From NCBI GenBank assembly GCA_050692985.1, contig JBOGVZ010000047.1, positions 76,533-140,532 on the forward strand: a stretch of 64,000 nucleotides of DNA. The letters run 5' to 3'. Within the stretch, counting starts at the first letter, position 1. Every line of letters begins with the position of its first letter. The notes beneath the pieces were generated by a model. It ran no database searches and was not told where the DNA came from. It was given only the letters and a program-made list of their open reading frames with translations. Shown one piece after another: positions 3,811-58,465 of this stretch. This DNA is from Actinomycetota bacterium. Lineage in GTDB: Bacteria; Actinomycetota; UBA4738; CALAEC01. Position numbers and translations under genes: made by a program.

Positions 3811-4239
3811 TCAGCCCGAACCGGAGTTGCCGCCGCCGCCGGGACCCGAGTTGTCGTCCGTGCCGTCGCCGTCATCGTCGTCGTCGTCATCTTCGTCGTC
3901 GTCGACGGTCGCCTCCGGCTGGGGCGTCGGCGTGGGCGACGGCTGCTCGACGGGCGGCTCGGGGAGGAGGGCCAGCGCGGCCTCCACGTCCGCCGCGGCC
4001 GCCAGGATCTCGTCGGCCCGGCCGGGGTCGAGCTCGCCGGCTCCCAGCCACTCGTCCACTGCCCGGCGGAGCTCGTCCAACCGGGCCGCGGCGGCCTGCC
4101 CATCGAGCTCCTCGACGGATCCCCGGACGGCAGCGACGCGGTCCTGAAGATCGCGGGAGGCCCCAGGGGCGAGCCCGCCGGCGCCGGCACACCCGGCCAG
4201 GGCCACGGCGGCGGCCAGGAGGAGGACCCGGGCCCTCAT
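3811..4239 (-). CDS. Small secreted lipoprotein with a poly-Asp/Glu C-terminal tail
   Basis: Internal ATG of ORF 3811..5235(-): MRARVLLLAAAVALAGCAGAGG (lipobox LAGC) ... coiled segment ... EATVDDDEDDDDDDDGDGTDDNSGPGGGGNSGSG. The ATG overlaps the kinase stop (ATGA), so it is co-transcribed with the kinase. Confidence 0.6.
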   Translation of the reverse strand: MRARVLLLAAAVALAGCAGAGGLAPGASRDLQDRVAAVRGSVEELDGQAAAARLDELRRAVDEWLGAGELDPGRADEILAAAADVEAALALLPEPPVEQPSPTPTPQPEATVDDDEDDDDDDDGDGTDDNSGPGGGGNSGSG

Positions 4240-5315
4240 GGTCGGACCGCCCCCTCCAGCCGGTCCAGGGCGTCCTCGAGCGGCGGCGGGACGCCGGTCT
4301 CGGTCCGGGGCTCCTCGGCGGGGCCGCCCGGCGAGGGTCCCCGCAGGGCGACGAAGGCCAGGGCCACCGCCAGCGCCACCACCGCCACGGCGGCGACCGC
4401 CAGGAGGACCGGGCGAGGCAGCCGCCTTCCTCCGGCCACCGGCGCCGCCGGCGGGAGGGGCTCGGTAGGGGTCACCGGGGGCTCGGCGTGGCGCGCCGGC
4501 TCGGCCTCGCCGGAGAGGGCCGCCGCCATGTCCTCCGCCGACGCGAACCGAGCGGCCGGGTCCGGAGACAGCGCCCGCTCGACCGCGGCGGCCAGGGCGG
4601 GGTCCGCGTCCGGACGGAGCTCCGACACGGCTGCCCGGCCGCCGTTGCGGATGGCATCGAGGAAGGCCGCCGGCGTGGCGGCCCGGAACGGCGGCCGGCC
4701 GGTCAGGGCCTCGTACAGGACGGCGCCCGCCGAGTACAGGTCGCTCTGCGGGGTGGCCGGCCTCCCCTCCAGGCGCTCCGGGGCCATGTACACCACGGTC
4801 CCCATCACCTCGGCCGTCTGGGTCGCCGCGGCGTCGGCCATCTTGGCGATGCCGAAGTCCGCGACCTTGGCGTCCCCATCCTCGGTGAGCAGGACGTTCC
4901 CCGGCTTGACGTCGCGGTGGACGATCCCCGCGGCGTGGGCCGCGCCCAGGGCCGCCAGGATGTCGCCGGCCAGGGCCCGGACGCGCTCGCGGTCCGAGGG
5001 CCCGTCCGCCAGCTCGTCGGCCAGCGTCCTGCCCGGCAACAGCTCCATGACGAGGTACGGGAGCCCGTCGTGGGTGCCGCTGTCGTAGACGGACACCACG
5101 TTCGGGTGCACGAGCCGGGCCGCGGCCCGAGCCTCGCCCTCCACCCGCCTCCGCACCGACGGCTGGGTTCCCAGGTCGCGGCGCAGGAGCTTCACCGCCA
5201 CCGGGCGGGACAGGCGAACGTCGCGCCCGGACCACACGTGGCCCATGCCGCCACCCGCGATCCGGCGCTCCAGCCGGTAGCGCCCCCCGACCACGGGAAC
5301 CGTCTCGCTGCTCAC
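4236..5315 (-). CDS. Hanks-type Ser/Thr protein kinase with a C-terminal transmembrane segment
   Basis: RYRLERRIAGGGMGHVWSGRDVRLSRPVAVKLL ... HRDVKPGNVLL ... DFGIA ... VYMAPE, a full kinase subdomain set. A hydrophobic stretch LLAVAAVAVVALAVALAFVAL is followed by an extracytoplasmic tail. Confidence 0.9.
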   Translation of the reverse strand: MSSETVPVVGGRYRLERRIAGGGMGHVWSGRDVRLSRPVAVKLLRRDLGTQPSVRRRVEGEARAAARLVHPNVVSVYDSGTHDGLPYLVMELLPGRTLADELADGPSDRERVRALAGDILAALGAAHAAGIVHRDVKPGNVLLTEDGDAKVADFGIAKMADAAATQTAEVMGTVVYMAPERLEGRPATPQSDLYSAGAVLYEALTGRPPFRAATPAAFLDAIRNGGRAAVSELRPDADPALAAAVERALSPDPAARFASAEDMAAALSGEAEPARHAEPPVTPTEPLPPAAPVAGGRRLPRPVLLAVAAVAVVALAVALAFVALRGPSPGGPAEEPRTETGVPPPLEDALDRLEGAVRP

Positions 5316-5428
5316 ACCCTAGGCATTCCCCGCAGGGCCGGGGATGAACGTTAGGAAACGCTCAGCCGAACAACGGCCAAGCGAGGCGAGCCGGTTGGAT
5401 CGCCCGCGGGCCCGTATGCTGGGCGGCC

Positions 5429-6829
5429 ATGTCCCGTCCGAGCGGTCCCTCGCGGTGGAGGCGCGGGGGGGCGGCGGCGGTGGCCGCCGTGGCCCTGGCG
5501 TCGGCGTGCACGGCGTCCCCCGAGGCCGGACCGAGCGCGGCGCCCACCTCTCCCTCCCCCAGCCCCGAGGCTCCCGTCCCTGCGCTCGAGGTGAACCTGG
5601 CCCGCACCGCCGGCTTCCCGGTGAAGGGCAAGGCCCGTCCCCGCCACCTGCGGCGGCCAGCTCGCGCGGTCCGGGAGGCCATGGATCGGCTGTACACGGC
5701 CGCGTTCGTGGACCCCGGCGCGTGGACCGGCGGCTTCCCAGGCGCGCTCCGCGAGTTCCGGGGCGAGGCCCGGCGACATGCCCGCAAGGACATCAACCGG
5801 CTCACCGTGGGGCGGGCAGCACGGGTCCTGTCCGAGGTTCGGCCGGTGAAGGCCCGGCTCCGGGTCGACCTGCTGCTGGGGACCGGGCGCAACGCGCTGG
5901 CCGCCCTGGCCCGGATGGAGTTCGCCGCCACCGGCCTCAGCACGGACGGCGTGGAGACGCCGATCCGCCATCGCGCCGAGTACCTGCTCCGCCGCTTCGG
6001 GGGCCGGTGGCAGATCGTGGCCTACCGGGTGAAGCATCGCCTGGTGCCCCAGCGGGTCCCCGGCGTGCCCACCGGGGGCACGCTGTTCGTGCTGGCGATC
6101 GGCAGCGACGCCCGCCCCCGGCAGTCGGTGCCCAGGGCCCGGGCCGACTCGATCCACATCATCGGGGTGAACCTGCGCAAGGGGAAAGCCTCGATCCTGG
6201 GGATCCCCCGGGACTCCCACGTCCCGATCCCCGGGCGGGGCACCCAGAAGATCAACGCGGCCCTGTTCCTGGGTGGCCCGGAGCTCCTGGTGCGAACGGT
6301 GGAGCAGCTCACCGGCATCCGCATGGACGGCTACCTGCTCACCGGGTTCGAGGGCTTCCGAAGGATGGTGACCCGCATCGGCGGCCTGACCGTCCGGGTC
6401 CCCTACCGGATGAGCGACGCGGCCTCCGGGGCGTACTTCCAGCCCGGCTCCAAGCGGATGAAGGGCCGGGCCGCCCTGGCGTTCTCCCGCAACCGCCACG
6501 ACGCGCCCGGCGGCGACTTCGGCAGGTCGGTCAACCAGGGGGCGGTGATCCTGGCCGCCCTCCGGGAGCTCCGCCGGGACGTGGGCAAGAACCCCGCCAC
6601 CCTGTTCAGGTGGGTGGGGGTCGCCGCCCAGCACCTCCAGACCGACCTCAGCCCCCTGGAGCGGCTGGAGCTGCTGATCGCCGCCCTGTCCATCGACCCC
6701 GGGAAGGTGCGGAACCGGGTGGTGTCCGGCGGCGGAGGCTTCGCCGGCAGCGCCAGCGTGGTGTTCCTGGGCGGCGGCGCCCGGGCGATGTTCCAGGACC
6801 TCCGCCGCGACGGCACGCTGGGCGGCTGA
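5429..6829 (+). CDS. LytR-CpsA-Psr (LCP) family cell-envelope phosphotransferase with lipoprotein-type signal peptide
   Basis: N-terminus AAAVAAVALASAC, then the LCP core RADSIHIIGVNLRKGKASILGIPRDSHVPIPGRGTQKINAA ... ALAFSRNRHDAPGGDFGRSVNQ. Confidence 0.85.
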   Translation: MSRPSGPSRWRRGGAAAVAAVALASACTASPEAGPSAAPTSPSPSPEAPVPALEVNLARTAGFPVKGKARPRHLRRPARAVREAMDRLYTAAFVDPGAWTGGFPGALREFRGEARRHARKDINRLTVGRAARVLSEVRPVKARLRVDLLLGTGRNALAALARMEFAATGLSTDGVETPIRHRAEYLLRRFGGRWQIVAYRVKHRLVPQRVPGVPTGGTLFVLAIGSDARPRQSVPRARADSIHIIGVNLRKGKASILGIPRDSHVPIPGRGTQKINAALFLGGPELLVRTVEQLTGIRMDGYLLTGFEGFRRMVTRIGGLTVRVPYRMSDAASGAYFQPGSKRMKGRAALAFSRNRHDAPGGDFGRSVNQGAVILAALRELRRDVGKNPATLFRWVGVAAQHLQTDLSPLERLELLIAALSIDPGKVRNRVVSGGGGFAGSASVVFLGGGARAMFQDLRRDGTLGG

Positions 6830-6841
6830 CCCCGCGGGGGT

Positions 6842-9800
6842 TCACCGAGACGTCGCCAGCATCTCCTCGGCGAACTCGGCGTGGCGGGGCATGCCCAGGC
6901 CCCGGTAGCCCGCCGCGGCCTCCTCGAGCATGGCCCGGGCCCGGTCCCCGTCCGCCGGGTTCCCCCACCGAAGCAGGGCGTGGGCGTGGAGCCTGCGCAC
7001 CTCAGGCACGTGGACCCGCTGGGGGAGGTCCTGGGCCTGGCGGAGCGCGGCGGCGAACCGCTCCTCGGCCTCGGCCCACCGGCCTCCGGCCGCCGCGGCC
7101 AGGCCCGCCACGGCGGGCAGGGGCCGCCCGTCCATCCCCCGCATGCGGACGCCCTTGGCCAGGGCCCGCTCCGCGTACCGGCCCAGCCCGGCCGCGTCCT
7201 CCCCCCGGCCCATCAGCGACAGGGACTCGATCGCGTACAGGACCATGGTCCACGCTCCGAACGTGATGGCCTCCTCCGGAGCGGGCAGCCGTCCCTCCCA
7301 CGCCCCGTAGAGCGCGAGGGCCTCGTCCTCGCGTCCGGCCTGGGCCAGATGGAGGAGGAGGGCCCCGGCGGACCAGCCCTCGAACGCCCCGGGGATCTCC
7401 AGCGAGACCGCCCGGCGGTGATGCTCCAGGGCCTCGTCCCACCGGCCCAACCACTCCGCCGAGATGGCCAGGAAGCTGTGCGACTGGGCCACCCACAGCT
7501 GCTCCAGCCGCTCACACAGCTCCAGGTCCCGGCGCGCGAAGGCCTCCACGGCCCGGAAGTCGCCCGTCCGTCCCACGTCCCGGAAGGCCCCGGCCCGCCC
7601 ATGCAGGATGATGGCCAGGCCCGATCCCACCCGCTCGGCGATCGGCGCCAGCTCCTCCCCCACCGCCTCGGAGGCCTCCAGGTCACCCAGGAAGAAGTGG
7701 CTGAACTCCACCAGGCCCAGCAGGACGGCCCGCTCCCACGGGCGATCGTGAAGGGCACCGGTGGCGTCGGCGCGGCGACCGGCCTCGACCGCGCCGGCGA
7801 ACTCCATGAACAGGTAGTCGGCGGTGGCCCGTCCCCCGTGCACGAACGCTTCCAGCCACGGATCCCCCAGCTCCCGGGCCAAGGCCAGGGCCTCCTCCTC
7901 CGTATCCAGGGCCGCGCGACGGTCGCCCGCCCACGCCAGGTAGGCCAGGTGGCCGGCCAGCAGCCGGACCCGGGCACCGTTCCGCATGCCGCCCGAGACG
8001 GTCAGCCCCCGCTGCACGAACTCCAGCCCCTCCACGGCCCGGCCGCTGTAGCCGAGCTCGTAGCCCAGGCGGGCGCAGAGCTCGGTCACGGCCTCGGGAT
8101 CGCCCAGCTCCGTGTACAGGTCGAGGGCCTGGCGCCACGCCGAGGCGGCGTCCCCGATCCGGCCCAGGCTCCGCAGGGCCAGCCCCAGTCGCACCAGGGC
8201 CTGGGCACGGGCCGGCGGGTCGCCCTCGATCAGCGACAGGGCGTTCTCGAAGTGGCCCAGGGCCTCCTCCCACGCGGCGCCGGCCATGGCTCGCTCCCCG
8301 GCCACGGTGAGGTATCGCCGGAGCTTGCCCGGGTCGACCCCCCCGCCGGCATTCAGCAGGTGGTGGATGAGCTCCTCGGCTCGCTCGTCCGCCCGTTCCC
8401 CCAGGCCGGCCTCGATGGCCTCGGCCACCTTCCGGTGCAGGCGCTGGCGACGGAGCGTGGACAGGCCCGCCAGCAGCGTCTGGCGGATCAGCTCGTGGGA
8501 GAACTCGAACCGCTGGCCGCCGTCGGCGGCGGCGATGAGCCGGGCGGCCTCGGCCGACTCCAGGGCGTCGAGCACCTGGTCCTCCCCGGTCCCGGCCACG
8601 GCCTCCAGGAGGTCCGTGTCGAAGCCCCGGCCGATCGTGGCCGCGGCGGCCAGGGTCTTGCGGCCCTCCTCGGTGAGCCGCTGGAGCCTCCGGCCGATCA
8701 CCAGCCGGAGGCTCTCCGGGACGTCGACCTCGTCCACCAGGACGTCGGTGCGCCACCGGCCGGCCTCGTCGATCAGGCGGCCCTCCTCCATCAGGTGCCG
8801 GACCACCTCCTCCACGAAGAACGCGTTCCCCTCGGTCTCCGCGTAGACGACCCGGACCACCTCCGGGGGCGGATCCTGGCCGGCCAGGCCGGCCATCATG
8901 GCCGCCACGGCCGGCTCGTCCAGCCGCTTCAGGGAGATCCGCTCGGCCAGGCGGCGACGCAGGAGGTCCTCGAGCGTCCGGGCCAGCGGGCGGTCCACCT
9001 CGAGCTCCACGTCGCGGTACGTGCCCAGGACCAGCAGGGGGACGTCGTCCAGGGACTCGGCCACGTGCTCCAACAGGAGCAGGGTGGGCTCGTCCGCCCA
9101 GTGGAGGTCGTCCAGGACCAGCAGCATCGGGCGGAGCTCGGCCGCTCGGCCGATGAAGTCCCGGATCGAGTTGAACAGGTAGCGGCGCTCCTGCTCGGGA
9201 GGAAGGTCCAGGGCCGGGGGGATGTCGCCGAACAGGCGCCGGATCTCGGGGACGATCCGGGCGATCTCCCCCGCGGACTCTCCGAGGAGCGCGCGCAGGG
9301 CCTCGGGGCTCCTGGCCCGGGCCACGGCCTGCTCCAGGATCGCCACCCAGGGCATGTACGGGAGGCCGCCCTCCGCCTGGGTGCAGTACCCCACCAGCAC
9401 ACGGGCCCCCCGCTGGTCGGCCTCCCAGGAGACCTCTTCGGCCAGGCGGGTCTTGCCCACCCCCGGCTCGCCACCGATCAGGACCAGCGATCCCCGGCCT
9501 TCCAGGGCCTCGTCCAGGTGCCGGCGAAGGTCGGCGCGTTCCTCGTCCCGGCCGATGAACGGCGTACGGGCCTGGTCCGGGGGAGCGACCGCCTTGCCCC
9601 CCCACCCCAGCTCGTGGAGCCGCCACCGCTGCGGGAACCCCTTGAGCCAGTACAGGCCTCGGTCCACCAGGGTGGGCCCATCGAGGCCCTCGGCGTGGGG
9701 GAGGAGGTCCTCGGACACCAGGATCTGGCCGCCCCGGGCGTGGGCGGAGATGCGGGCCGCCGCGTTGACGGTGGCACCGAACAGGTCGTCGCCCCGCTCG

Positions 9801-10102
9801 ATCACCTCCCCGGCGTGGAGCCCCATCCGCACCGACACCCCGGGCGCTTCCTCCGGCAGGCGGCGTTGGATGGCCACAGCGGCGTCGAGGGCGGTCCGGG
9901 GCTCGGGGAAGGAGAGCATGAACCCGTCGCCCATCGTCTTGACCTCCCGGCCGCGGCGGCGGGCGATCTCCTCGCGGACGATCCCCTCGTGGAGCTCCAG
10001 GAGGAACCGGCACTCCTGGTCGCCCACCCGGTTGGCCAGGTCCGTGGAGCCCACCACGTCGGTGAACAGCAGGGTGGCGGTACGGGCGGCTTCGTCGGTC
10101 AG
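6842..10102 (-). CDS. Multidomain class III adenylate/guanylate cyclase - AAA/NB-ARC ATPase - TPR protein (Rv0386/Rv1358-like architecture, no LuxR HTH)
   Basis: ...TATLLFTDVVGSTDLANRVGD...GDGFMLSFPEP...GLHAGEV (cyclase), then LIGGEPGVGKTRLA (Walker A) ... LVLDDLHWADEP, then a long TPR-like C-terminus. The conserved FTD metal-binding strand lies upstream of the first GTG (10057). An in-frame CTG at 10100-10102 sits 6 nt after GGGAGAGGA and is taken as the start. Confidence 0.85.
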   Translation of the reverse strand: MTDEAARTATLLFTDVVGSTDLANRVGDQECRFLLELHEGIVREEIARRRGREVKTMGDGFMLSFPEPRTALDAAVAIQRRLPEEAPGVSVRMGLHAGEVIERGDDLFGATVNAAARISAHARGGQILVSEDLLPHAEGLDGPTLVDRGLYWLKGFPQRWRLHELGWGGKAVAPPDQARTPFIGRDEERADLRRHLDEALEGRGSLVLIGGEPGVGKTRLAEEVSWEADQRGARVLVGYCTQAEGGLPYMPWVAILEQAVARARSPEALRALLGESAGEIARIVPEIRRLFGDIPPALDLPPEQERRYLFNSIRDFIGRAAELRPMLLVLDDLHWADEPTLLLLEHVAESLDDVPLLVLGTYRDVELEVDRPLARTLEDLLRRRLAERISLKRLDEPAVAAMMAGLAGQDPPPEVVRVVYAETEGNAFFVEEVVRHLMEEGRLIDEAGRWRTDVLVDEVDVPESLRLVIGRRLQRLTEEGRKTLAAAATIGRGFDTDLLEAVAGTGEDQVLDALESAEAARLIAAADGGQRFEFSHELIRQTLLAGLSTLRRQRLHRKVAEAIEAGLGERADERAEELIHHLLNAGGGVDPGKLRRYLTVAGERAMAGAAWEEALGHFENALSLIEGDPPARAQALVRLGLALRSLGRIGDAASAWRQALDLYTELGDPEAVTELCARLGYELGYSGRAVEGLEFVQRGLTVSGGMRNGARVRLLAGHLAYLAWAGDRRAALDTEEEALALARELGDPWLEAFVHGGRATADYLFMEFAGAVEAGRRADATGALHDRPWERAVLLGLVEFSHFFLGDLEASEAVGEELAPIAERVGSGLAIILHGRAGAFRDVGRTGDFRAVEAFARRDLELCERLEQLWVAQSHSFLAISAEWLGRWDEALEHHRRAVSLEIPGAFEGWSAGALLLHLAQAGREDEALALYGAWEGRLPAPEEAITFGAWTMVLYAIESLSLMGRGEDAAGLGRYAERALAKGVRMRGMDGRPLPAVAGLAAAAGGRWAEAEERFAAALRQAQDLPQRVHVPEVRRLHAHALLRWGNPADGDRARAMLEEAAAGYRGLGMPRHAEFAEEMLATSR

Positions 10103-10170
10103 GGCGGATCCTCTCCCGGGCGTTCGATCCCAGATTGTCCCGCAGCTGCCGGTCCGGCGCCTACCCGTTT

Positions 10171-10244
10171 CACTGGGGGGTTCGCTCGCTGTTCACTCTG
10201 ACGCTTCCATCGCCCCCGGCGAGCTACACCCCCCGGACCCCCCC
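10171..10244 (+). repeat. Copy A of a ~73-nt GC-rich hairpin repeat (CACTGGGGGGTTCGCTCGC...GGCGAGCTACACCCCCCGGACCCCCCC)
   Basis: Shares its 5' 20 nt and 3' ~26 nt with the copies at 26232, 56804, 56878 and, inverted, 34454. The central ~27 nt are unique. Its 3' end supplies the last codons and the TAG stop of the P450 gene (...LRVRGGVRGV*). Confidence 0.8.
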
Positions 10245-11525
10245 GCGGACCCGGAGCTCCTTCAGGCCGCGGATGATGTAGTTGGGCTTCCACTCGGGCT
10301 CCTCCACCAGCTCCAGGCCCGGGAGGCGCCGCAGCAGCGTGCCGAACGAGGTCTCCAGCTCCACCCGGGCCAGCGGCGCCCCCAGGCAGAAGTGGATCCC
10401 GGCGCCGAACGACATGTGGGGGTTCTTCGGCCGGCCCACGTCGAGCTCGTCGGGACGCTCGAACACCTCGGGGTCGCGGTTGGCGCTGCCGAACAGCAGG
10501 GCCAGCTCCTGTCCCTTCGGGATCTCCACGCCGTGGACCTCCACGTCCTCCAGCACCCACCGCTCGAACATCTGGAGGGGGGTGTCGTAGCGCATCAGCT
10601 CCTCGATGGCCGTGCGCACCAGGGAGTGGTCGTCGTGGAGGCGTTGCAGCTCGCCCGGGTTGCGGAACAGCGACCACCACCCGTTGCCGGTGACGTTGAC
10701 CGTGGCCTCGTGGCCGGCGTTGAGCAGCAGGACGCAGGTGCCGATCAGCTCGTCCTTGGTGAGCCGGTGTCCCTCCTCCAGCACCTGGGTCAGGGCCGAG
10801 ATCAGGTCCTCCCGCGGGTCCCGGCGGCGCTCCCTCGATAGCCCGCGGAGGTAGGCGGAGAACTCCTCGCTGGCGGTGACCGCGGCCCGGGCGTCCTCGT
10901 CGGTGGGGTTGAGCTCGTACATCCGGCAGATCTCCGCCGACCACGGACGGAGGAGGTGGCGGTCGGACTCGGGCACGCCCAGCATCTCGGCGATCACCGC
11001 CACCGGCAGCGGCTCGGCCAGCTCCCTGATGAGGTCGAACTCGCCGGCGCCGGCCACCCCGTCTACCAGCTCCTCCATCAGGCCCTGGACGAACGGGCGC
11101 AGGCCCTCGACCATCCGCGGGGTGAACGCCTTCGACACCAGCTTCCTCACCCGGGAGTGGTCGGGAGGCTCCATGTCCAGGATCCCGGATCGGATCAGAT
11201 GCCAGAAGGGCGCGTGCCACTCGGGCTCCTCGGGCCGGCCCATCTCCGCGTGGGTGGCCATGTGGTGGTACGTCCGGCCGAACCGCCGGTCGCGGAGCAA
11301 GCCGTTCACGTCGTCGTGGCGGGGCACGATCCACTGGTTCGTGCCCTCGAAGTAGTGGATGGGCCCGGCCCGGCGCAGCGACGCGTAGACCGGATAGGGA
11401 TCGGCCACGAACTCCACTGCCCACGGGTCGAACCCCAGGGCCGCGGGATCGGCCATTCCGTGTGGCGCGGGGACCTGCGGCGCGTGCGCCATCAGCGGGA
11501 GTGTAGCGCGGGCGCTCGGCGTCAC
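10224..11525 (-). CDS. Cytochrome P450
   Basis: ...AGHEATVNVTGNGWW... EELMRYDTPLQ ... FGAGIHFCLGAPLARVE (heme-binding Cys loop) ... The start may be the internal Met (MADPAALGFDPW). Confidence 0.9.
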   Translation of the reverse strand: MTPSARATLPLMAHAPQVPAPHGMADPAALGFDPWAVEFVADPYPVYASLRRAGPIHYFEGTNQWIVPRHDDVNGLLRDRRFGRTYHHMATHAEMGRPEEPEWHAPFWHLIRSGILDMEPPDHSRVRKLVSKAFTPRMVEGLRPFVQGLMEELVDGVAGAGEFDLIRELAEPLPVAVIAEMLGVPESDRHLLRPWSAEICRMYELNPTDEDARAAVTASEEFSAYLRGLSRERRRDPREDLISALTQVLEEGHRLTKDELIGTCVLLLNAGHEATVNVTGNGWWSLFRNPGELQRLHDDHSLVRTAIEELMRYDTPLQMFERWVLEDVEVHGVEIPKGQELALLFGSANRDPEVFERPDELDVGRPKNPHMSFGAGIHFCLGAPLARVELETSFGTLLRRLPGLELVEEPEWKPNYIIRGLKELRVRGGVRGV

Positions 11526-16432: not shown

Positions 16433-17410
16433 TCAGGTACCCTTCGCCGGGGGGTGGGTGTCGCGGATCTTGAACAGCCGGACGCGGCCCACGCCCTTGA
16501 GGCTCCGGCTCCCGATCCGCCTCGCGTCCACCGCGTCGCGGCCGACCGCGTCGACGAATTCCTCGGAGGCCACCACGGAGCTGGGCCGGGCGAAGGCGGT
16601 GATCCTGGCGGCCACGTTGACGGGCCGCCCGAAGTAGTCGCCGCCCAGGGCCACCACCTCGCCGTAGTCGAGCCCGGCCCGGGCCGCAGGGAGGACCTCC
16701 GATCCCTCGGCCCGGCGGACCACGGTGGCGGCGGCCTCCAGGGCCCGAGGGGCCTCCGTGGAGACGAACATCACCGCGTCGCCGATCACCTTCACCAGGC
16801 GGGCTCCGGCCTCGGCGCAGGCCTCCACGGCCAGGTCCTCGAAGGCGTCGATCATCCCGCCCAGCTCCTCGCCGGGCAGGTCCTCGGAGATGCGGGAGAA
16901 GTCCACCAGGTCCACGAACCCGGTGGCCAGCGCGGAGCCCTCGCCGGTCCCGGCGGCCCGCAGCCCGTTCAGGGCCAGGAACAGGTGGCGGCGGTGGGCC
17001 TGGTCGAGGAGGTGGGCAGTGCTCTCCAGCAGCGAGTCCATCACGGGGCGGAGCCGCTCCTCCATCCCCTCACCGGGCTCGACGGCCATGGCCCCCAGGA
17101 TGCGGTCGCGGAACAACCTCGTCTCCGCGTCGGCGATCCGGGCCAGCGTGGTTCCGTACAGCCTGGTCACGGTGAGCATCTCGTCGGGCGGAACCCCGAG
17201 CTCCATGATGCCCCGGAGCAACGCCAGCGCCTCGACGTCACGGTCGTCGAACACGACCTCCCGGTCGTCCGGCTCGGGCATCCCCAGGGCCCGCCACACC
17301 CGCTTGGCCAGCGTCAGGTCGAGCCCGGCCTTGGCCGCGGCCTCCGGGGCGGTCAGGTGCGGCGGAGGGGCGAAGCTCTCCGCGGGGGGTGGCAGCGGTC
17401 GCTCGGACAG
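16433..17410 (-). CDS. Class III adenylate cyclase with N-terminal regulatory domain (Rv1264-like)
   Basis: C-terminal cyclase ATGFVDLVDFSRISEDL...KVIGDAVMFV...GEVVALGGDYFGRPVNVAARI. The N-terminal ...GLDLTLAKRVWRALGM resembles the Rv1264 regulatory domain. Conserved residues extend upstream of the first GTG (17299) to a TAG. The only plausible start is CTG at 17408-17410, 6 nt after AGGAGG. Confidence 0.8.
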   Translation of the reverse strand: MSERPLPPPAESFAPPPHLTAPEAAAKAGLDLTLAKRVWRALGMPEPDDREVVFDDRDVEALALLRGIMELGVPPDEMLTVTRLYGTTLARIADAETRLFRDRILGAMAVEPGEGMEERLRPVMDSLLESTAHLLDQAHRRHLFLALNGLRAAGTGEGSALATGFVDLVDFSRISEDLPGEELGGMIDAFEDLAVEACAEAGARLVKVIGDAVMFVSTEAPRALEAAATVVRRAEGSEVLPAARAGLDYGEVVALGGDYFGRPVNVAARITAFARPSSVVASEEFVDAVGRDAVDARRIGSRSLKGVGRVRLFKIRDTHPPAKGT

Positions 17411-23273: not shown

Positions 23274-24920
23274 CTACGGGCCGCCGGGTGCCCGGAGCTC
23301 TCGCTTCAGCACCTTGCCGGTCGAGGTGCGGGGCAGCTCGTCCACGATGTCGACGTGCCTGGGGACCTTGAACGAGGCCAGCTCGGCGCGGCAGGCCTTC
23401 AGGACGTCCTCCTCCGAGGCCGACCCCGCCACGAACGCCGCCAGCACCCGGCCGTACTCGGGGTCCGGCACGCCCACCACGGCGACCTCGTCCACGCCGG
23501 CCACGCGCTCGATGACCTGCTCGACCTCCACCGGGTACACGTTCTCGCCGCCGACCACCACCATGTCGTCGGCCCGGCCCTCCACGAACAGGTAGCCCCG
23601 TTCGTCCAGGTGGCCCAGGTCGCCGACGGCCAGGTAGCCCTGCCGGCCTTCCCGGCCTTCTCCCGAGGTGTAGCCCTCGAACGTGGCGTCGCTGCGGACG
23701 TGGATCTCCCCGGTCTCCCCGGCGCCGAGCGGCCGGCCCTCCGGCGAGAAGACGGCCACCTCCACGCCGGGGACGGGCCGGCCCACCGTGGCCGGGCGCC
23801 GGGCCATGTCCCGGGGCGTGGCCACCGTGACCCACCCCGCTTCCGTGGACCCGTACAGGTCGTGGAGGACGTCGCCCAGGACCTCCCGGGCCCTGGCCCG
23901 CAGCTCCTGGCCCAGCGATGCCCCGCTGGTGAACACGATCCGCAGGGACGAGAGATCGAAGCCGGATCGGGCCTCCTCGGGGAGGGACACGATCCGGCTG
24001 ATCATCACCGGGACCAGGGCCACGGCCGTGGCCCCGGTGTCCTCGACCATCCGGAGCGTCCCCCGGGCGTCGAAGCGCTCGGGCAGGACCATGGTGCACC
24101 CCAGCAGCATCGCCAGCGAGAACGTGAGCATGCCGAACGAGTGGAACATCGGCGCGGGGATGCACACCACGTCGTCGCGGCGCAGCGGCACCGCCGTGAG
24201 CAGGCCCAGGATCGAGGTGATCTCGCCGCCGCCGGTGCCCCTGGCCGCGCCCCTGGGCTTCCCCGTGGTGCCCGAGGTGTGGATCACGATGCGGTGCGAG
24301 CCGCGGTTCAGGGTCAGCGGGCCGGGTGGGGTGGGCGGATGCTCGGCCAGGAGGTCCTCGTAGGGACGGGAGCCCGGGACCGCGTTCTCCCCGTCGCCCG
24401 CGGCAACCAGGGCCATGCCGCCGGCGAGCTCGCCGACCCGGTCGGCGTGGAGCTCGTCGTACAGCAGGACCCTCGGCTCGGTCTGCTCGAGCGCCGGCCG
24501 CAGCTCCGACGGCCTGGCCCAGGTGTTCAGGGGGCAGGCCACCACACCCACCTTCTGTGCCGCCAGCACACCCTCCACCAGCTCCCGGCCGTTGCGCAGC
24601 AGCAGGGCCACCCGGTCCCCGGGCGACGCCCCCAGGGACGCCAGCGCTCCGGCAAGCCGGTTCACCCGCCCGTCGAGCTCGGACCAGGTCAGCGTCCCCC
24701 ACCGGTCGACCACCGCCTCCTTGTCCGGGAACGCCCGGGCGTTCAGGTGGCTGAGGATGCCCAGGGACGGGCCCCGCCCCGCCAGCCACGGGATCGACCG
24801 GAGCGCCGCCGCGGCCGCGGCCCGATCCACCAGCCGGGCGTCCCACAGCCGGGCCAGGGTCCTGGGCCCGGCCACAGCGGCGATCCGGCGCAGGCTCCGG
24901 CGCGCGCCCTCGAGCCTCAT
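23274..24920 (-). CDS. AMP-dependent synthetase/ligase (acyl-CoA synthetase family)
   Basis: IVIHTSGTTGKPRGA (AMP-binding box) ... LYGSTEAGWV ... GEIHVRSDATFEGY ... PRTSTGKVLKREL. The ATG at 24918-24920 overlaps the upstream hydrolase stop (ATGA). Confidence 0.9.
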   Translation of the reverse strand: MRLEGARRSLRRIAAVAGPRTLARLWDARLVDRAAAAAALRSIPWLAGRGPSLGILSHLNARAFPDKEAVVDRWGTLTWSELDGRVNRLAGALASLGASPGDRVALLLRNGRELVEGVLAAQKVGVVACPLNTWARPSELRPALEQTEPRVLLYDELHADRVGELAGGMALVAAGDGENAVPGSRPYEDLLAEHPPTPPGPLTLNRGSHRIVIHTSGTTGKPRGAARGTGGGEITSILGLLTAVPLRRDDVVCIPAPMFHSFGMLTFSLAMLLGCTMVLPERFDARGTLRMVEDTGATAVALVPVMISRIVSLPEEARSGFDLSSLRIVFTSGASLGQELRARAREVLGDVLHDLYGSTEAGWVTVATPRDMARRPATVGRPVPGVEVAVFSPEGRPLGAGETGEIHVRSDATFEGYTSGEGREGRQGYLAVGDLGHLDERGYLFVEGRADDMVVVGGENVYPVEVEQVIERVAGVDEVAVVGVPDPEYGRVLAAFVAGSASEEDVLKACRAELASFKVPRHVDIVDELPRTSTGKVLKRELRAPGGP

Positions 24921-26158
24921 CCCGCCTCCAGGAACCCCCGGACCAGCCGGTGCGTCTCTTCCGGCAGCTCGTACTGGGGCACGTGCCCGCAATCGCGCAG
25001 CACCACCGAGGCCGCCCCCGGGAGGGCCCGCTCCACGTGCCGGGCGAACGCCGCAGGGACCAGCCGGTCGTGCTGCCCCCACACGAACAGGGCCGGTCGC
25101 CGGAGCCCGGGCAGCCGGTCCCAGAACCCGCCGTCGCCGTAAGGCTCCTCCAGGTAGATCTGGCGAGCGGCCGAGAAGAACGCGATCCGGCCGCGGGGCG
25201 TCCCGAACACCCGCAGGAACTCGTCGGCGGCGGCCTCGTACCACGGGCCGGGCAGCCGGGCGGGGCGGGAGAACATCCGCTTGATCGACCACACCACCTG
25301 CCGGTGGGAGAGCGGGACCGGCAGGAGCGCCAGCTCCGGCCGCAGCACCCGCACCACCCGCACGAACTCTCGATGGCGGATGAACGCCGGCGAGGGCGTG
25401 AGCAGCACCATCCGGTCCACGCGCTCGGGAGCCCGCAGCCCCGTCTCGATGGCCACCCGGCCGCCCATCGAGTTGCCCACCAGGTGGGTCCGGTCGATCC
25501 CCACCACGTCCAGGAACCCCCGCAGCCACCGGGCGAAGAACGCGGCGTGGTAGCTCCGCAGCGGCTTGCCCGATTCCCCGAAGCCGGGCAGGTCGGGCGC
25601 CAGCACGCGGTGGTCCCGGGCCAGCTCCACCAGGATCGGAAGGACCGAGGCGTTCGTGGCCCCCAGGCCGTGGAGCAGCACCACGGGTGGCCCCCGGCCG
25701 GCCTCCAGGTAGAACGTGGGGACGCCCCACACCAGGGCGGAGCCGGCCCGGGGGAAGTGGTCGGGGCGGCGGCGGCCGTCGAACAGGCTGTCGAGCCGGA
25801 GCGACAGGGCCAGGTTCCCCCGGACCCGCAGACGGCCCCCCAGGAACGCGTCCACCCCCGAGCGGGTCCCCTCCATCACCTCGGTGATCGTGGCCACGTC
25901 CGTGTCGATCGTGGTGTCCGGGGCCTCGGCCAGCTCGGTGGCCAGGCTCACCGTTCCCCGGTCGAATCGCAGCGACAGCCCCCCGTGATCGCCGAGGTTC
26001 AGCGCCACCGTGGCTCGCAGGCTCCGGACGCCGCCGGTGGGGTGCCGCACCCGCTCGCGGACCAACCGCTCCAGCGCCCGAAGCTCGGTGGAGGCCGGGG
26101 GTGGGGCCGAAGGGAGCGATGGTCGGCCTGCCGTCACCTGCGATCCTGGCCGGGCCAT
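24917..26158 (-). CDS. SCP2-domain / alpha-beta hydrolase fusion protein
   Basis: N-terminal SCP2-like ...ATVALNLGDHGGLSLRFDRGTVSL...DAFLGGRLRVRGNLALSLRL, then VVLLHGLGATNASV...LVGNSMGGRVA (GxSxG)...CGHVPQYE. Confidence 0.8.
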   Translation of the reverse strand: MARPGSQVTAGRPSLPSAPPPASTELRALERLVRERVRHPTGGVRSLRATVALNLGDHGGLSLRFDRGTVSLATELAEAPDTTIDTDVATITEVMEGTRSGVDAFLGGRLRVRGNLALSLRLDSLFDGRRRPDHFPRAGSALVWGVPTFYLEAGRGPPVVLLHGLGATNASVLPILVELARDHRVLAPDLPGFGESGKPLRSYHAAFFARWLRGFLDVVGIDRTHLVGNSMGGRVAIETGLRAPERVDRMVLLTPSPAFIRHREFVRVVRVLRPELALLPVPLSHRQVVWSIKRMFSRPARLPGPWYEAAADEFLRVFGTPRGRIAFFSAARQIYLEEPYGDGGFWDRLPGLRRPALFVWGQHDRLVPAAFARHVERALPGAASVVLRDCGHVPQYELPEETHRLVRGFLEAG

Positions 26159-26231
26159 ATGGGACCATTGTTACCCACGCCCGGGCCCCAGGAACGGAAC
26201 CGGTGCCCCCCCCGGACCCCGGGGCCCCCCT

Positions 26232-26305
26232 CACTGGGGGGTCCGCTCGCCTTCCGAGTCCTCGGCCCGGCGGTGGTCGGGGCGAGCTACCCCCCCGGGC
26301 CCCCC
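26232..26305 (+). repeat. Copy B of the ~73-nt hairpin repeat (CACTGGGGGGTCCGCTCGCC...GGGGCGAGCTACCCCCCCGGGCCCCCCGG), preceded by a partial 3'-arm remnant (26203-26227)
   Basis: Sits in the divergent intergenic region between the SCP2-hydrolase start (26158, minus) and the nitroreductase start (26324, plus). Confidence 0.8.
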
Positions 26306-34304: not shown

Positions 34305-34453
34305 GGGCGGAGCTCCCCGGCCGGCCCGCCCACCGAAACACCTACCCGTCGAGGTCGACCTCGGACGGCGCCGATGACCCGGCGAGGTCGTGAACCGGAG
34401 CCCACTCGGGGCCGTCCCAACGAGGGAACCAGACGGAAGGAGCGGCGATGAAC

Positions 34454-34526
34454 GGGGGGTCCGGGGGGGTAGCTCGCCCGGGGGCGGGATGGCGGCGATC
34501 CGGACGGCGAGCGAACCCCCCAGCGA
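34454..34526 (-). repeat. Copy E of the ~73-nt hairpin repeat, inverted orientation (GGGGGGTCCGGGGGGGTAGCTCGCC...GGCGAGCGAACCCCCCAGCG)
   Basis: Lies immediately upstream of the cupredoxin start. The 5'-terminal CACTG is changed to CGCTG. Confidence 0.75.
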
Positions 34527-34550
34527 GAGGGGGGTCCGGGAAGGTAGCGG

Positions 34551-35083
34551 TGCTGGTGATGGCCGCGGGGATGGCCGCGGCGGGGATGGCCGGACCGACC
34601 CCTGCCGGCGCCAGCGGTGGCGGTGGGTGCGGGGCACCGCTCACCGAGGCCACCGGGACCACGGTGGCGATCCGGGGGTTCTGCTTCACCCCGACCGTGC
34701 TCCACGTCTCGCCGGGGACCGACGTCTCGTTCGTGAACCGGGACGGGGTGCCCCACAACGTGCTCGGGGCGGGCGGCGAATGGGGCAGCTTCGAACGACT
34801 GCGACGCGGCGTCCCCACGACCTACCGGTTCGAGGCCTCGGGGACGTTCGCCTTCAGCTGCGTGTACCACCCGGGCATGGTCGGCACGGTCGTGGTGGGT
34901 GACGGCGTGGGGGCCGGGTCGGCGGTGGACATCCGGCCGGTGGCCGCGACGCGCCCAGCCCGAGAGCCGGCCCAGCAGGCCACCACCGGATGGAGGATGG
35001 CCACCGCGATCAGCGTGGGGATGCTGCTGCTCACGGTGGCGGCCGCGGCCGGCCAGCGTCGCCACCTGCTCGGGCGGCGCTAA
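34551..35083 (+). CDS. Cupredoxin-fold blue-copper protein (amicyanin/plastocyanin-like) with signal peptide
   Basis: Likely GTG after GGAAGG. ...FCFTPTVLHVSPGTDVSFVNRDGVPHNV...TFAFSCVYHPGMVGTVVV (His...Cys-x2-His-x2-Met copper ligands). The N-terminal 35 codons of ORF 34448.. are the repeat read through. Confidence 0.7.
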
Positions 35084-37727: not shown

Positions 37728-38591
37728 ATGGCCACGCTCGCGTTCCTCGGTTTGGGGCAGATGGGCGCTCCGATGGCCGCCCGCCTGCTCGGTGCCGGGC
37801 ACCGGCTCTCCGTGTGGAACCGTACCTCGGAGAAGGCCGAGCCGCTCGTGTCCCGCGGCGCCCGGGGGGCGTCCTCGCCGGGCGATGCGGCGTCGGGAGC
37901 GGAAGCGGCGATCACCATGCTGGCCACGCCCGAGGCGATGGAGGAGGTCGTGTTCGGGCCCGGCGGGCTGGCGGAGGCCCTGGCGGACGGAGGCACGCTC
38001 ATCGAGATGTCCACCATGGGACCCGGGGCCATCCGCCGGACCGCCCGGCGCCTCGGCGAGGGGGTCACGGTGATCGATGCCCCGGTGCTCGGCACGGTCC
38101 CCCACGCCGAGGAGGGCACCCTGAAGATCTTCGTGGGTGGCTCCCAGGGGGCCCTGGCCCGGTGGCGGGACGTCCTGTCGGCGATGGGCACGCCGATCCA
38201 CGTGGGGCCGCAGGGGGCCGGGGCCTCGATGAAGCTCGTGGTCAACTCGACGCTGGGGGCGATGATGGCCGGTCTCGGCGAGGCCCTGGTCCTGGCGGAC
38301 GCGTTCGGGCTCGACGAGAAGACCGTGCTCGACGTGCTGTCGGAGTCCGCCATCGGCGCCACCACGAAGAGCAAGCGGGACAAGATCGAGACCGGCGTCT
38401 ACGAGCCCAACTTCAAGCTCTCGCTGGCCCGCAAGGACGTGCGACTGGTGACCGAGGAAGCCGAGCGGGCCGGTGCCGAGCTTCGGGTGGCCCCGGCGGC
38501 CCGGGCCTGGCTGGAAGCGGCCGACGACGGGGGCCTCGGCGACCTCGACTACTCGGCGGTGGTGGCTCACATCCGCGGCCGACCGGGGTAG
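37728..38591 (+). CDS. NAD(P)-dependent 3-hydroxyisobutyrate/6-phosphogluconate-dehydrogenase-family oxidoreductase
   Basis: MATLAFLGLGQMGAPMAARLLGAGHRLSVWNRT (Rossmann) ... KLVVNSTLGAMMAGLGEAL. Confidence 0.85.
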   Translation: MATLAFLGLGQMGAPMAARLLGAGHRLSVWNRTSEKAEPLVSRGARGASSPGDAASGAEAAITMLATPEAMEEVVFGPGGLAEALADGGTLIEMSTMGPGAIRRTARRLGEGVTVIDAPVLGTVPHAEEGTLKIFVGGSQGALARWRDVLSAMGTPIHVGPQGAGASMKLVVNSTLGAMMAGLGEALVLADAFGLDEKTVLDVLSESAIGATTKSKRDKIETGVYEPNFKLSLARKDVRLVTEEAERAGAELRVAPAARAWLEAADDGGLGDLDYSAVVAHIRGRPG

Positions 38592-38642
38592 TCAGATCCG
38601 GCGCGGAGCGGGCGATGGCCGTGGTCACCCATGGCGTCAGCT

Positions 38643-39557
38643 TCACTGGGGGGTTCGGACGGCGAAGGCCAGGGGCCGCCCCGGCTCCCGCGACTTGCAG
38701 GTGAGGATGCGGGGGTCGCGCCGTCCGACGGCGACCTCCACCCGGTGGCGGGGACCGTCCACCTGGTCGAACTCGACGACGTGGCGGCCCCGAGCCAGCC
38801 GCCGGACCGCCCGGAACGCCAGGTCCTCGACCCCGACGATCCCGTGCCGCTCCCGGACGAAGTGCTCGGCGGCCTGGACGGCCGGCGGATAGGCCGAGCG
38901 CCCCCTGTAGAACGGCAGGGCGATCCGTCCCCGGGCGTAGGCCTCGGCCACCCCTACCGCATCGCCCGGTCCCACCCGTCCGAAGTACAGCCCGTGGGGG
39001 AAGCACACCACGTTGCCGGCGAAGCGGTCGCCGCCCACGTGGGTGGCCTCCCACACCGCTCCGTCCCCGAACCCGGCCAGGGCCCGGTACAGGGGCCCGC
39101 CCAGGCGGGCGCAGCAGGGGTCGTGCTTGCCATGGGTGCACACCAGGTAGAGCGGCCCGGGCACGGGCTCACCGAACCCCTCGAACCGCCGCCCCACCAG
39201 GGCGTCGAGGTCCAGCTCCATCAGCCAGGCCGGGTCGTCGACCTCGAAGCTGGCCACCCGGTGACGGTCCCGCCCGGTGTGCGCCACGAAGCACCTCCGT
39301 GGCACCGCCACCGGCCGCTGCCGCTGCTTGACGAGCAGCACGCGCATGCCCAGCCGCGTTCCGGCCTCGGCCAGCCTGGCCCCGACGTCGGGAGGGAACG
39401 CGCTGTCGACCAGGGCGTCGTGCCCCCACCGGCCGGGCTGCTCGATCAGCAGCCAGGAGCGGAACCGCGACGCCGTGCCGGCCAGGGGCTCGTCGGCCGC
39501 CAGGGAGACCGCGGAGCACACCGCCCCCTCAGCGGCCACCTGTGACCTCGAGGGCAC
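38643..39557 (-). CDS. Sucrase/ferredoxin-like (thioredoxin-like [2Fe-2S]) family protein
   Basis: ...LYLVCTHGKHDPCCARLGGPLY..., the characteristic Cys cluster. Its last codons and TGA stop (CCC CAG TGA) are formed by the 5' terminus of repeat fragment C. Confidence 0.65.
   Translation of the reverse strand: MPSRSQVAAEGAVCSAVSLAADEPLAGTASRFRSWLLIEQPGRWGHDALVDSAFPPDVGARLAEAGTRLGMRVLLVKQRQRPVAVPRRCFVAHTGRDRHRVASFEVDDPAWLMELDLDALVGRRFEGFGEPVPGPLYLVCTHGKHDPCCARLGGPLYRALAGFGDGAVWEATHVGGDRFAGNVVCFPHGLYFGRVGPGDAVGVAEAYARGRIALPFYRGRSAYPPAVQAAEHFVRERHGIVGVEDLAFRAVRRLARGRHVVEFDQVDGPRHRVEVAVGRRDPRILTCKSREPGRPLAFAVRTPQ
38644..38658 (+). repeat. Fragment C: only the 15-nt 5' terminus (CACTGGGGGGTTCGG) of the hairpin repeat
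   Basis: Identical to the first 14-15 nt of copies A and D. The rest of the element is absent. Confidence 0.5.
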
Positions 39558-40752: not shown

Positions 40753-41040
40753 CTACCTGGCGTCGGTGGTGTCGCTGTCCCCCGACTCGTCGGTGGTGTC
40801 GTCGTCGGCGTCGGTCGTATCGGTGTCGTCGACGGCGTCGGTGGTATCGGTGTCGCCACCACCGCCCTCGTCCGCGGCGTCGGTGGTATCCGAGTCGGTC
40901 CCGTCCTGGTCGGCGGCATCGGTCGTGTCGGTGCTGTCCGCGTCCCGGGTGTCCGGGTCCTCAACCGAGGCCGATGCGTTGCCGCCGGCAAGCGAGACGG
41001 TCCGGATGTCCTCGTCGGTGAGCTTCGTGGGGTCGGCCAT
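40753..41040 (-). CDS. Small highly acidic Asp/Thr-rich repeat protein (TDTTDA-type repeats), intrinsically disordered
   Basis: Strong SD (AGAGGAGATGGC-ATG). MADPTKLTDEDIRTVSLAGGNASASVEDPDTRDADSTDTTDAADQDGTDSDTTDAADEGGGGDTDTTDAVDDTDTTDADDDTTDESGDSDTTDAR. Confidence 0.55.
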   Translation of the reverse strand: MADPTKLTDEDIRTVSLAGGNASASVEDPDTRDADSTDTTDAADQDGTDSDTTDAADEGGGGDTDTTDAVDDTDTTDADDDTTDESGDSDTTDAR

Positions 41041-51021: not shown

Positions 51022-51112
51022 GCCCGGCCGCCGATCTCCCGGGGAGACCGGAGCGGGGTCATACGCTCCAGCAGCGGTGTGCGCCGGCGCCGGGATGCGT
51101 TTCCGCAGGTCG

Positions 51113-51187
51113 TGCGCCCGGAGGGACTCGAACCCCCAACCTCCTGATCCGTAGTCAGACGCTCTGTCCAAATTGAGCTACGGGCGC
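51113..51187 (-). tRNA. tRNA-Arg (anticodon ACG)
   Basis: Reverse complement GCGCCCGTAGCTCAATTTGGACAGAGCGTCTGACTACGGATCAGGAGGTTGGGGGTTCGAGTCCCTCCGGGCGCA folds as a cloverleaf with 7-bp acceptor stem, anticodon loop CTACGGA and a GTTCGAGTC T-loop. CCA is not encoded. Confidence 0.85.
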
Positions 51188-51191
51188 TGCG

Positions 51192-51280
51192 CGGAGGCGG
51201 TGCGATTTGAACGCACGAGGGGCTTGCACCCCAACGGGATTAGCAATCCCGCGCCATAGACCAGACTAGGCGACGCCTCC
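51192..51280 (-). tRNA. tRNA-Ser (anticodon GCT), class II with long variable arm
   Basis: Reverse complement GGAGGCGTCGCCTAGTCTGGTCTATGGCGCGGGATTGCTAATCCCGTTGGGGTGCAAGCCCCTCGTGCGTTCAAATCGCACCGCCTCCG, with anticodon stem CGGGA/TCCCG and loop TTGCTAA. Confidence 0.85.
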
Positions 51281-56793: not shown

Positions 56794-56803
56794 GGCTCCT
56801 CTC

Positions 56804-56876
56804 CACTGGGGGGTTCGCTCGCCATCCGATCCCGACGCCGACCCACCCGGGGCGAGCTACCCCCCCGGACCCCCCT
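56804..56876 (+). repeat. Copy D1 of the ~73-nt hairpin repeat (CACTGGGGGGTTCGCTCGCC-ATCCGATCCCGACGCCGACCCACCCGG-GGCGAGCTACCCCCCCGGACCCCCC)
   Basis: First unit of a tandem pair between the hydrolase stop (56992) and the msrB start (56793), both on the minus strand. Confidence 0.85.
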
Positions 56877-56877
56877 C

Positions 56878-56950
56878 CACTGGGGGTTCGCTCGCCATCC
56901 GATCCCGACGCCGACCCACCCGGGGCGAGCTATCCCCCCCGGACCCCCCA
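56878..56950 (+). repeat. Copy D2, near-identical tandem duplicate of D1 (including the loop sequence)
   Basis: Differs from D1 by one G fewer in the 5' run and an extra T in the 3' arm. The repeat period is 74 nt. Confidence 0.85.
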
Positions 56951-58293: not shown

Positions 58294-58465
58294 CCTCTCC
58301 GCTCCGTCGGTCCCGTTTCCGTCGGGCGACGCTGGCCCAACGCCCAGGCCCGCATACTACGAGATGCAGGGGCCCGGCTCATCGGGTTCCGGCCCCGCGC
58401 CCGGAACGGGGCCGTCGAGGAGCGGTTCGATCCACCCTGCCCCATGGGGCGCCTATCCTCGGGAC

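Follow-up and report, generated by a model that had tools for sequence, protein, structure and literature searches.

The window, as the whole 64,000-nucleotide stretch analysed here is termed, derives from an Actinomycetota bacterium and has a G+C content of 73%. Among its minus-strand genes is one for a cytochrome P450, a protein with at least 8000 homologues at E <= 1e-30, and downstream of it in the same direction lies a gene for an adenylate/guanylate cyclase carrying AAA_16 and TPR domains (Table 1). The P450 reading frame terminates ...KELRVR GGVRGV TAG, and the bases that specify GGVRGV and the stop codon (10224-10244) are the reverse complement of a conserved arm (...GGCGAGCTACACCCCCCGGACCCCCCC) of a short repeat, copy A, exactly as the original prediction had stated. 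Positions 10170-10244 comprise TCACTGGGGGGTTCGCTCGCT, 27 nt and GGCGAGCTACACCCCCCGGACCCCCCC; on the minus strand, which is the direction of the flanking genes, copy A reads GGGGGGGTCC-GGGGGG-TG-TAG-CTCGCC...GGCGAGCGAACCCCCC-AGTGAAAC. Further copies lie elsewhere in the window, one of them within a gene for a cupredoxin of the plastocyanin/azurin family that has a lipoprotein-like signal peptide.

The cyclase/AAA/TPR gene has an unusual start (10057-10102 region, minus strand). No ATG, GTG or TTG precedes its conserved TLLFTDVVGST, and a CTG occupies the position of the GTG start of the orthologue at L002 (loci collected from other genomes are numbered L001, L002 and so on). The first canonical start is the GTG at 10057, use of which would cost the protein the FTD motif of its cyclase domain; the gene may use a rare CTG start or be decaying, or the sequence may contain an error. 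A cyclase neighbour of the P450 is common to the window and L002 only, and at L002 a gene for a PA-domain/LVIVD protein of 621 aa (4933-7079) stands between the two, where the window (10100-10223) has the repeat and about 70 nt, with no PA-domain gene. Loss and gain are indistinguishable for this gene, as they are for an amidase gene that is present at L003 and missing in the window (see below).

Table 1. Positions of the genes and repeat units discussed, numbered within the 64,000-nucleotide window
Feature	Position	Strand	Match or remark
Cyclase gene (adenylate/guanylate cyclase, AAA_16, TPR), co-directional, downstream of copy A	6842..10102	-	
GGG-TAG, probable displaced native last codon and stop of the P450	10161..10166	-	In-frame N-G-stop
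Repeat copy A, 78 nt	10167..10244	-	nhmmer E = 2.9e-11
Repeat-derived codons GGVRGV (10227-10244) and TAG stop (10224-10226) of the P450	10224..10244	-	
Cytochrome P450 gene, 433 aa from first GTG	10224..11525	-	Pfam PF00067, E = 4.8e-27
Repeat copy B	26231..26305	-	nhmmer E = 1.2e-10
Cupredoxin (plastocyanin/azurin-family) gene, lipoprotein-like signal peptide	34448..35083	+	PF00127
Repeat copy D, 75 nt	34454..34528	+	nhmmer E = 6.6e-12
Truncated second unit GGGGGGTCCGGGAAGGTAGCGG, immediately following copy D	34529..34550	+	
Fragment C, 15-nt match to repeat terminus (CGAACCCCCCAGTGA, gene strand)	38643..38657	-	
Sucrase/ferredoxin-like gene, 298 aa, identical to P0121	38643..39539	-	PF06999
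Repeat copy E	56803..56875	-	nhmmer E = 2.1e-14
Repeat copy F	56876..56949	-	nhmmer E = 4.5e-12

The repeat and its copies in the window

The repeat unit measures 75-78 nt. Read in the direction of the genes, its 5' part is G6-TYC-G7-TAG-CTCGC(C), its middle a variable loop of about 29 nt and its 3' part (G)GCGAGC-GRA-C6 followed by a tail of some 8-13 nt, rich in purines; on the 5' side copies begin abruptly at the G-run, and on the 3' side they fade out along this tail. Folding pairs the G7..CTCGC arm with the GCGAGC..C6 arm to give a long hairpin, and some diverged copies show a compensatory arm change (GCTCGCC/GGCGAGC to GCTGGCC/GGCCAGC). The inverted arms, G7-TA-GCTCGC and GCGAGC-GRA-C6, are subterminal, with G6-TYC lying outside one and the purine-rich tail outside the other. 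The repeat matches no known RNA family in Rfam, which reports none at gathering score and only meaningless matches at E > 2 on copies A and E/F. The element is very probably an interspersed repeat of the REP/MITE kind, short, non-coding and able to form a hairpin, and specific to an uncultured clade of soil Actinomycetota. The kind is already known; the family itself, which we do not place in any named family, is apparently undescribed.

The 15-mer TCACTGGGGGGTTCG that forms the terminus of the repeat occurs five times in the window at <=2 mismatches, against 0.36 expected, and an HMM built from the family finds five full copies with nhmmer (E = 1e-10 to 2e-14), which align as A, B, D, E and F. 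Copy B occupies a divergent intergenic region with its sense end facing an alpha/beta-hydrolase gene (24917-26170, minus), and a partial unit (~26205-26230) lies ahead of it. Copies E and F form a tandem at 56803-56949 with a period of 73 nt and 94% identity; copy F begins 43 nt past the stop of a hydrolase gene (56992-58356, minus) and the 3' end of copy E adjoins the Shine-Dalgarno sequence GGAGAGGAG of msrB (56398-56793, minus).

Several other structures were noticed in the window. Inverted repeats at 53783-54127 and 60091-60435 (52-87 nt, 76-79% identity, about 6 kb apart) fall in two long opposite-strand ORFs and look like paralogous genes, not a mobile element. Short degenerate tandem repeats at 40757-40954 and 3856-3917, of the types GTCGGTGGT and GTCGTCGTC, are probably low-complexity Asp/Thr/Pro-rich protein segments encoded on the minus strand. 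ARAGORN calls a 90-nt tRNA-Pro (17229-17318) and an 81-nt tRNA-Thr (39154-39234) inside coding-looking regions; both are probably false positives, the only tRNAs with support from Rfam being a pair at 51112-51280 (tRNA-Arg and tRNA-Ser).

The end of the P450 gene

The P450 protein was compared with the 120 best of its at least 8000 homologues (72-89% identity). Nearly all of the 120 end "...IIRGL.EL.VRx", which is one residue past RVR and five before the end of the window's protein; a few have one to three further residues, and the GGVRGV tail is in none of them. The same holds at the level of DNA, where 80 of the 81 loci with a readable end stop one residue past RVR or its equivalent, the odd locus having a longer, unrelated tail, while one further locus ends at the end of its contig. 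None of these loci has a match to the repeat (nhmmer, E <= 0.01). At the closest of these, L001 (89% identity), the gene ends CGC GTC CGC GCG TAG and unrelated sequence follows; the end at L002 (84% identity) is similar, and in both the site is empty. A scan of metagenomes for closer relatives of the P450 found the best to be 76% identical and the repeat in none.

Reading on in the P450 frame of the window gives RVR, GGVRGV and a stop, then LAGGDGSVRVNSERTPQ and a stop, then N, and then G and a stop. If the 78 nt of copy A are excised, RVRG-TAG is restored in frame, which is the architecture of the orthologues; this would place the old stop 78 nt further downstream. The flanking sequence GTAGGCGCCGGACCGGCAGC is, by eye, like GTAGGGGCCGGTGCGGCCGC after the P450 stop of L001 at 16 of 20 positions. 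The best reading of this arrangement is that copy A represents a clean 78-nt insertion one codon ahead of the native stop, which probably survives unused at 10161-10163. GGG is found on either side of copy A and is inseparable from the G-run of the repeat itself, and, as the closest orthologue is only 89% identical, we infer the exact pre-insertion sequence. The comparison supports a C-terminus that was extended by five residues (GVRGV), not replaced.

The prediction that the element had inserted at the 3' end of the P450 gene thus holds, whereas its further claim, that the native C-terminus and stop had been replaced, does not, because the new tail appears to have been added before a surviving stop. 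The comparison with orthologues proposed at that stage did not refute the prediction: nearly all of the proteins and loci end five residues sooner, and not at the same residue.

Other gene termini in the window

Copy D affects the opposite end of a gene. It follows the second codon of the cupredoxin gene in frame, with no stop along the repeat, and lengthens the N-terminus of the protein by 25 residues, ahead of the hydrophobic core. The orthologous site at L003 has no repeat; the gene order (AIR-synthase-like, cupredoxin, glucose/sorbosone dehydrogenase) is the same as in the window, and the Shine-Dalgarno sequence and ATG (GACGGAAGGAG..ATG) are common to both. A 12-nt repeat following copy D resembles a truncated second unit, and the truncated unit (34529-34550) could provide the cupredoxin with an alternative ribosome-binding site and GTG start.

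At the sucrase/ferredoxin-like gene the trace is shorter. The gene terminates ...CGA ACC CCC CAG TGA, an exact 15-nt match to the repeat terminus (fragment C) that encodes T-P-Q and the TGA stop. The prediction that CCC-CAG-TGA is the reverse complement of the repeat terminus is accordingly exact over these 15 nt, but the match is statistically much weaker than that at the P450. The closest orthologue, P0122 (78% identity; L003), ends ...TTCGCCGTCCGAA-GCCTGGGGGACCGGTGA, against ...TTCGCCGTCCGAA-CCCCCCAGTGA in the window. As the first four bases of fragment C (CGAA) are present in L003 too and are ancestral, only the 11-mer TCACTGGGGGG is new, and 0.12 occurrences of it are expected per window by chance. 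The DNA similarity to L003 ends at 38651 and returns at 38580 in a convergent NAD-binding dehydrogenase gene, so that the divergence begins exactly at the first repeat-like bases. Between the two genes L003 has a segment of about 1.4 kb (3995-5391) with a 1.35-kb amidase gene, in place of which the window has 70 nt (38581-38650). These 70 nt gave no significant tblastn or blastn signal for an amidase remnant, and an 'xLxPW' resemblance seen by eye is unsupported. What lies downstream of the sucrase/ferredoxin-like gene is different in each of the lineages examined; in more distant orthologues the junction is occupied by an aldo-keto reductase, and for this reason loss of the amidase and its gain are indistinguishable.

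Fragment C is, on its sequence, likely to be a relic of the repeat at a rearrangement junction, unproven as this is, and may have been joined through the CGAA microhomology. The alternative is coincidence in a 73% G+C genome, with the TPQ-stop reflecting natural C-terminal variation. This would agree with the ancestral origin of four of the 15 bases and the chance expectation of the rest, with the varied sequence and length (about 2 to 20 residues) of orthologue tails past the conserved LTCK..PR.F motif, and with the failure of the family HMM to report fragment C in the window. However, coincidence would also have to explain why an exact match begins at the very point at which the closest orthologue ceases to be similar, why it does so at a breakpoint in gene content, and why it carries CAGTGA, a terminus variant specific to the window and common to copies A and B; we consider it improbable. 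The predicted action of the element on the 3' end of this gene agrees with the break at the repeat-like bases, but the natural variation of the tails and of the downstream gene content leaves it plausible only.

Distribution and persistence of the family

The family was sought in one genome from each of 185,579 species with a strict pattern spanning both arms; the pattern fixes the arms, so the loci are ascertained by arm sequence. Every one of the 66 copies it retrieved, which occupy 56 loci, comes from one of about nine MAGs of uncultured organisms recorded as "Actinomycetota bacterium", and nhmmer with the family HMM gives 89 matches in the 459 kb of collected sequence. Several of the copies found in the scan are tandem pairs at contig ends. 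Tandem arrays occur at the very ends of MAG contigs at L004, L005, L020, L025, L039, L050 and L054, and identical arrays are present on two different contig ends in the pairs L005/L050 and L004/L054. Short-read assemblies are probably interrupted by such arrays, whose true length may exceed what is seen.

A filled orthologous site is common to two species-level MAGs (L041 and L051), with flanks 87-90% identical and diverged loops, which means that copies can persist vertically through speciation. Dispersed copies differ strongly in the loop. As far as sequence can tell, such divergence points to copies that are old and persistent more than to a recent burst; spread by recombination would be a further possibility.

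Gene ends, orientation and operon junctions

To describe the setting of the family, 71 copies were read in the direction GGGGGGG-TAG-CTCGC, with genes called by GC3 and not taken from curated annotation. A co-directional upstream gene stops in or at the repeat in 18 of the 71. Nine copies, that at the window's P450 included, donate the same conserved in-frame TAG; the resulting tails are of the form GGSGG, GGPGG or GGLGG, and GGVRGV in the P450. Six more are read into or through by the upstream gene in other frames, and at the remaining three the upstream stop abuts the 5' G-run. The TAG frame is thus used by 9 of 15 copies, against one third expected (p = 0.03), an excess that fits selection for short tails. 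The genes that stop in the repeat are genuine and typically the first cistron of a pair, and encode E1 alpha (twice), a CoA-transferase, LutA, LutB, phosphoglucomutase, PolX and CobW. Coding insertions are seen only in the extreme 5' or 3' codons of genes.

The orientation of the repeat is strongly polar. Between co-directional genes 20 copies are in sense and 2 in antisense orientation (p = 1e-4), and the downstream gene is on the strand of the repeat in 38 cases versus 11 (38/49, p = 1.4e-4). In 21 of the 71 copies a start codon follows within about 30 nt of the core, as for msrB after copy E, and copies are found at the classical operon junctions E1alpha-E1beta, LutA-LutB-LutC and CoA-transferase A-B. 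At L056 (4005-6286) two copies occupy the lutA-lutB-lutC operon, one per junction, and both upstream lut ORFs read through the repeat, acquiring repeat-encoded tails of about 25 residues; the LutA ORF (4005-4799) in doing so overlaps the start of LutB (4796). The strength of the orientation bias bears out the prediction that the repeats are not neutral spacers.

The most plausible source of this polarity is selection at the level of the mRNA. Replication-strand bias is an unlikely cause: copy D follows its own neighbours and lies in the opposite orientation to A, B, E and F of the same window, which indicates that the bias tracks transcription, not replication. A weaker RNA hairpin in the sense orientation was also rejected, the mean folding energy being -33.4 kcal/mol on both strands. 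There is an excess of G-U pairs beside the arms on the antisense strand; it is mostly contributed by a single sub-lineage and cannot count as independent evidence.

Comparison with known repeats

In behaviour there is a parallel with the mycobacterial interspersed repetitive units (MIRUs), reportedly described by Supply and colleagues in 1997 as units of 40-100 bp that often form short direct tandem arrays. MIRUs are intergenic in operons and oriented with transcription, have reading frames that overlap the upstream stop and the downstream start, and are not palindromic. The present repeat likewise lies between the genes of operons (the E1, Lut and CoA-transferase junctions) in the direction of transcription, and shares frames with flanking stops and starts (18 of 71 copies; LutA/LutB of L056). 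In contrast to MIRUs it is strongly palindromic, forming a long G+C hairpin, it carries a fixed internal TAG, and its arrays have a period of 73-78 nt that is not always divisible by three. The comparison is an analogy in behaviour and not one of membership. Rickettsia palindromic elements (RPEs) are also palindromic; they insert into the interior of the ORFs of many genes, where they are tolerated and translated in frame. The actinobacterial repeat is similarly translated in frame at copy D (cupredoxin) and in the tails of LutA and LutB, but its insertions into coding sequence were seen only at terminal codons.

The alteration of protein ends by small repeats has precedents. The behaviour of the present repeat closely matches that of two elements of Coxiella burnetii, QMITE1 and QMITE2, which extend over functional genes at their 3' ends and supply C-terminal residues; one QMITE gives EnhC its 33 C-terminal residues, with the stop codon immediately downstream of the element, and the insertions into functional genes are all at the 3' end (PMC5896051). 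Enterobacterial small mobile sequences of the RU/ERIC type are a further case (see also PMC2759123), and elements of this class can shift the point at which a protein ends. At 75-78 nt, non-coding and with five copies in 64 kb, the present repeat has the small size (< ~500 bp), lack of coding capacity and multiple copies of a MITE, and, like the QMITEs, it has inverted arms that form a stable stem and it alters protein ends. It differs from them in having no sequence similarity to them, arms that are not strictly terminal, and no clear target-site duplication or known parent insertion sequence, and also in its strong polarity with transcription and frequent short direct tandem arrays.

Possible origin and role

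The copies would arise by some copy-and-insert or recombinational process, for which transposition by a trans-acting factor and recombination or slippage are candidate routes, and would survive only where a gene-dense genome tolerates them, that is in short operon spacers and in the first or last codons of genes. At the P450, as the comparison with orthologues shows, copy A follows the Arg codon of RVR and precedes the native GGG-TAG, with the TAG of the repeat in frame, so that translation ends there. Eight further genes, unrelated to one another, end at this TAG in related genomes; where the frame is different, translation passes through the repeat, examples being LutA, LutB and the signal peptide of the cupredoxin. 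No transposase, autonomous partner, transposition intermediate or unambiguous target-site duplication was seen in the window and the collected loci, and neither GTAG nor another target motif is generally conserved in the flanks of copies. The mobility that had been predicted for these repeats is inferred from their presence and absence at orthologous sites.

One account of why copies are retained is that the repeat is first of all a selected intercistronic RNA module, and not a selfish insertion; it would be a portable cassette that combines a stop codon with a stable hairpin and with a Shine-Dalgarno-like tail rich in purines. Such a module might act in mRNA processing or stability, or in translational coupling or uncoupling at operon junctions, with the coding overlaps being part of its working; a mobile origin would be compatible with this. 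The strong polarity with transcription, the placing of copies between stop and next start in classical operons, the short distance from the core to many start codons and the purine-rich tail after the hairpin are all as this account would have it, as are the conserved arms, the orthologous copy kept across species and the one compensatory arm change. Against it, the downstream genes are functionally unrelated and orthologous loci manage without the repeat; tandem arrays and truncated units occur, and copies are found in divergent and convergent spacers as well. Nor is there an Rfam match, and the hairpin is equally stable on both strands, with no strand-specific RNA signal detected. We regard such a role as doubtful on balance.

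A related and similarly speculative proposal is that the repeat acts as a polar, portable 'intercistronic cassette' kept by selection at operon junctions across species, which, through a stop codon capable of falling in frame, its hairpin and its Shine-Dalgarno-like tail, would reset the end of the upstream protein and the expression of the downstream cistron. It would then be a hairpin-bearing analogue of the MIRUs in an uncultured lineage of actinobacteria and a systematic source of new protein termini.

It is less likely still that the repeat is an element of the REPIN/REP type, mobilised by a single-copy RAYT (Y1/HUH) transposase that acts on hairpins of single-stranded DNA. We know of no REPIN-RAYT system in Actinomycetota, and a brief literature search found no paper combining REPIN with Actinobacteria. 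Copies of the repeat do persist vertically across species, as REP sequences do. In the REP/REPIN-RAYT systems of Pseudomonas, Enterobacteria and Stenotrophomonas (SMAG), as here, conserved inverted arms surround a variable spacer and form a long hairpin of about 70-110 nt, like the REP doublets, and the elements are extragenic; a conserved GTAG lies directly 5' of the palindrome (GTAG-CTCGCC...GGCGAG), which recalls the GT[AG]G head of REPs (PMC3116915, PMC2817692). However, the single arms of the actinobacterial repeat are not REP palindromes, or palindromes at all, its loop is about 29 nt long and not a few nucleotides, and its GTAG is buried in the outer G7/C6 stem. Inverted doublets, the replicative unit of REPINs, are not what is found: clustered units are direct tandem repeats on the same strand with periods of 73-78 nt, and no inverted pair flanks an ORF in the 56 loci. 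Moreover, the orientation of copies follows local transcription, copy D pointing the other way from A, B, E and F in a single 64-kb stretch, and 18 of 71 copies touch coding sequence, against 14 of 1,067 16-mers in SBW25 (PMC3116915). The phylum, too, is different.

Implications

For annotation, automatic pipelines will attach repeat-encoded tails or N-termini to proteins of these MAGs, the P450, E1 and Lut proteins among them, and may pick wrong starts. For assembly, it is of consequence that tandem arrays coincide with contig ends in several MAGs. That small repeats can alter gene ends is a general phenomenon already documented for other bacterial MITEs and REPs; the present case is unusually clean and recurrent. 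It offers an orthologue-controlled example of a small repeat shifting the starts and ends of proteins, in which the same TAG has been captured independently by nine unrelated genes. At the level of function, the orientation bias suggests a testable effect on the mRNA. Should the repeat indeed act as a cassette at operon junctions, the GG[SPL]GG tails, the 25-residue tails of LutA and LutB and the extended signal peptide of the cupredoxin would all be new protein termini of its making.
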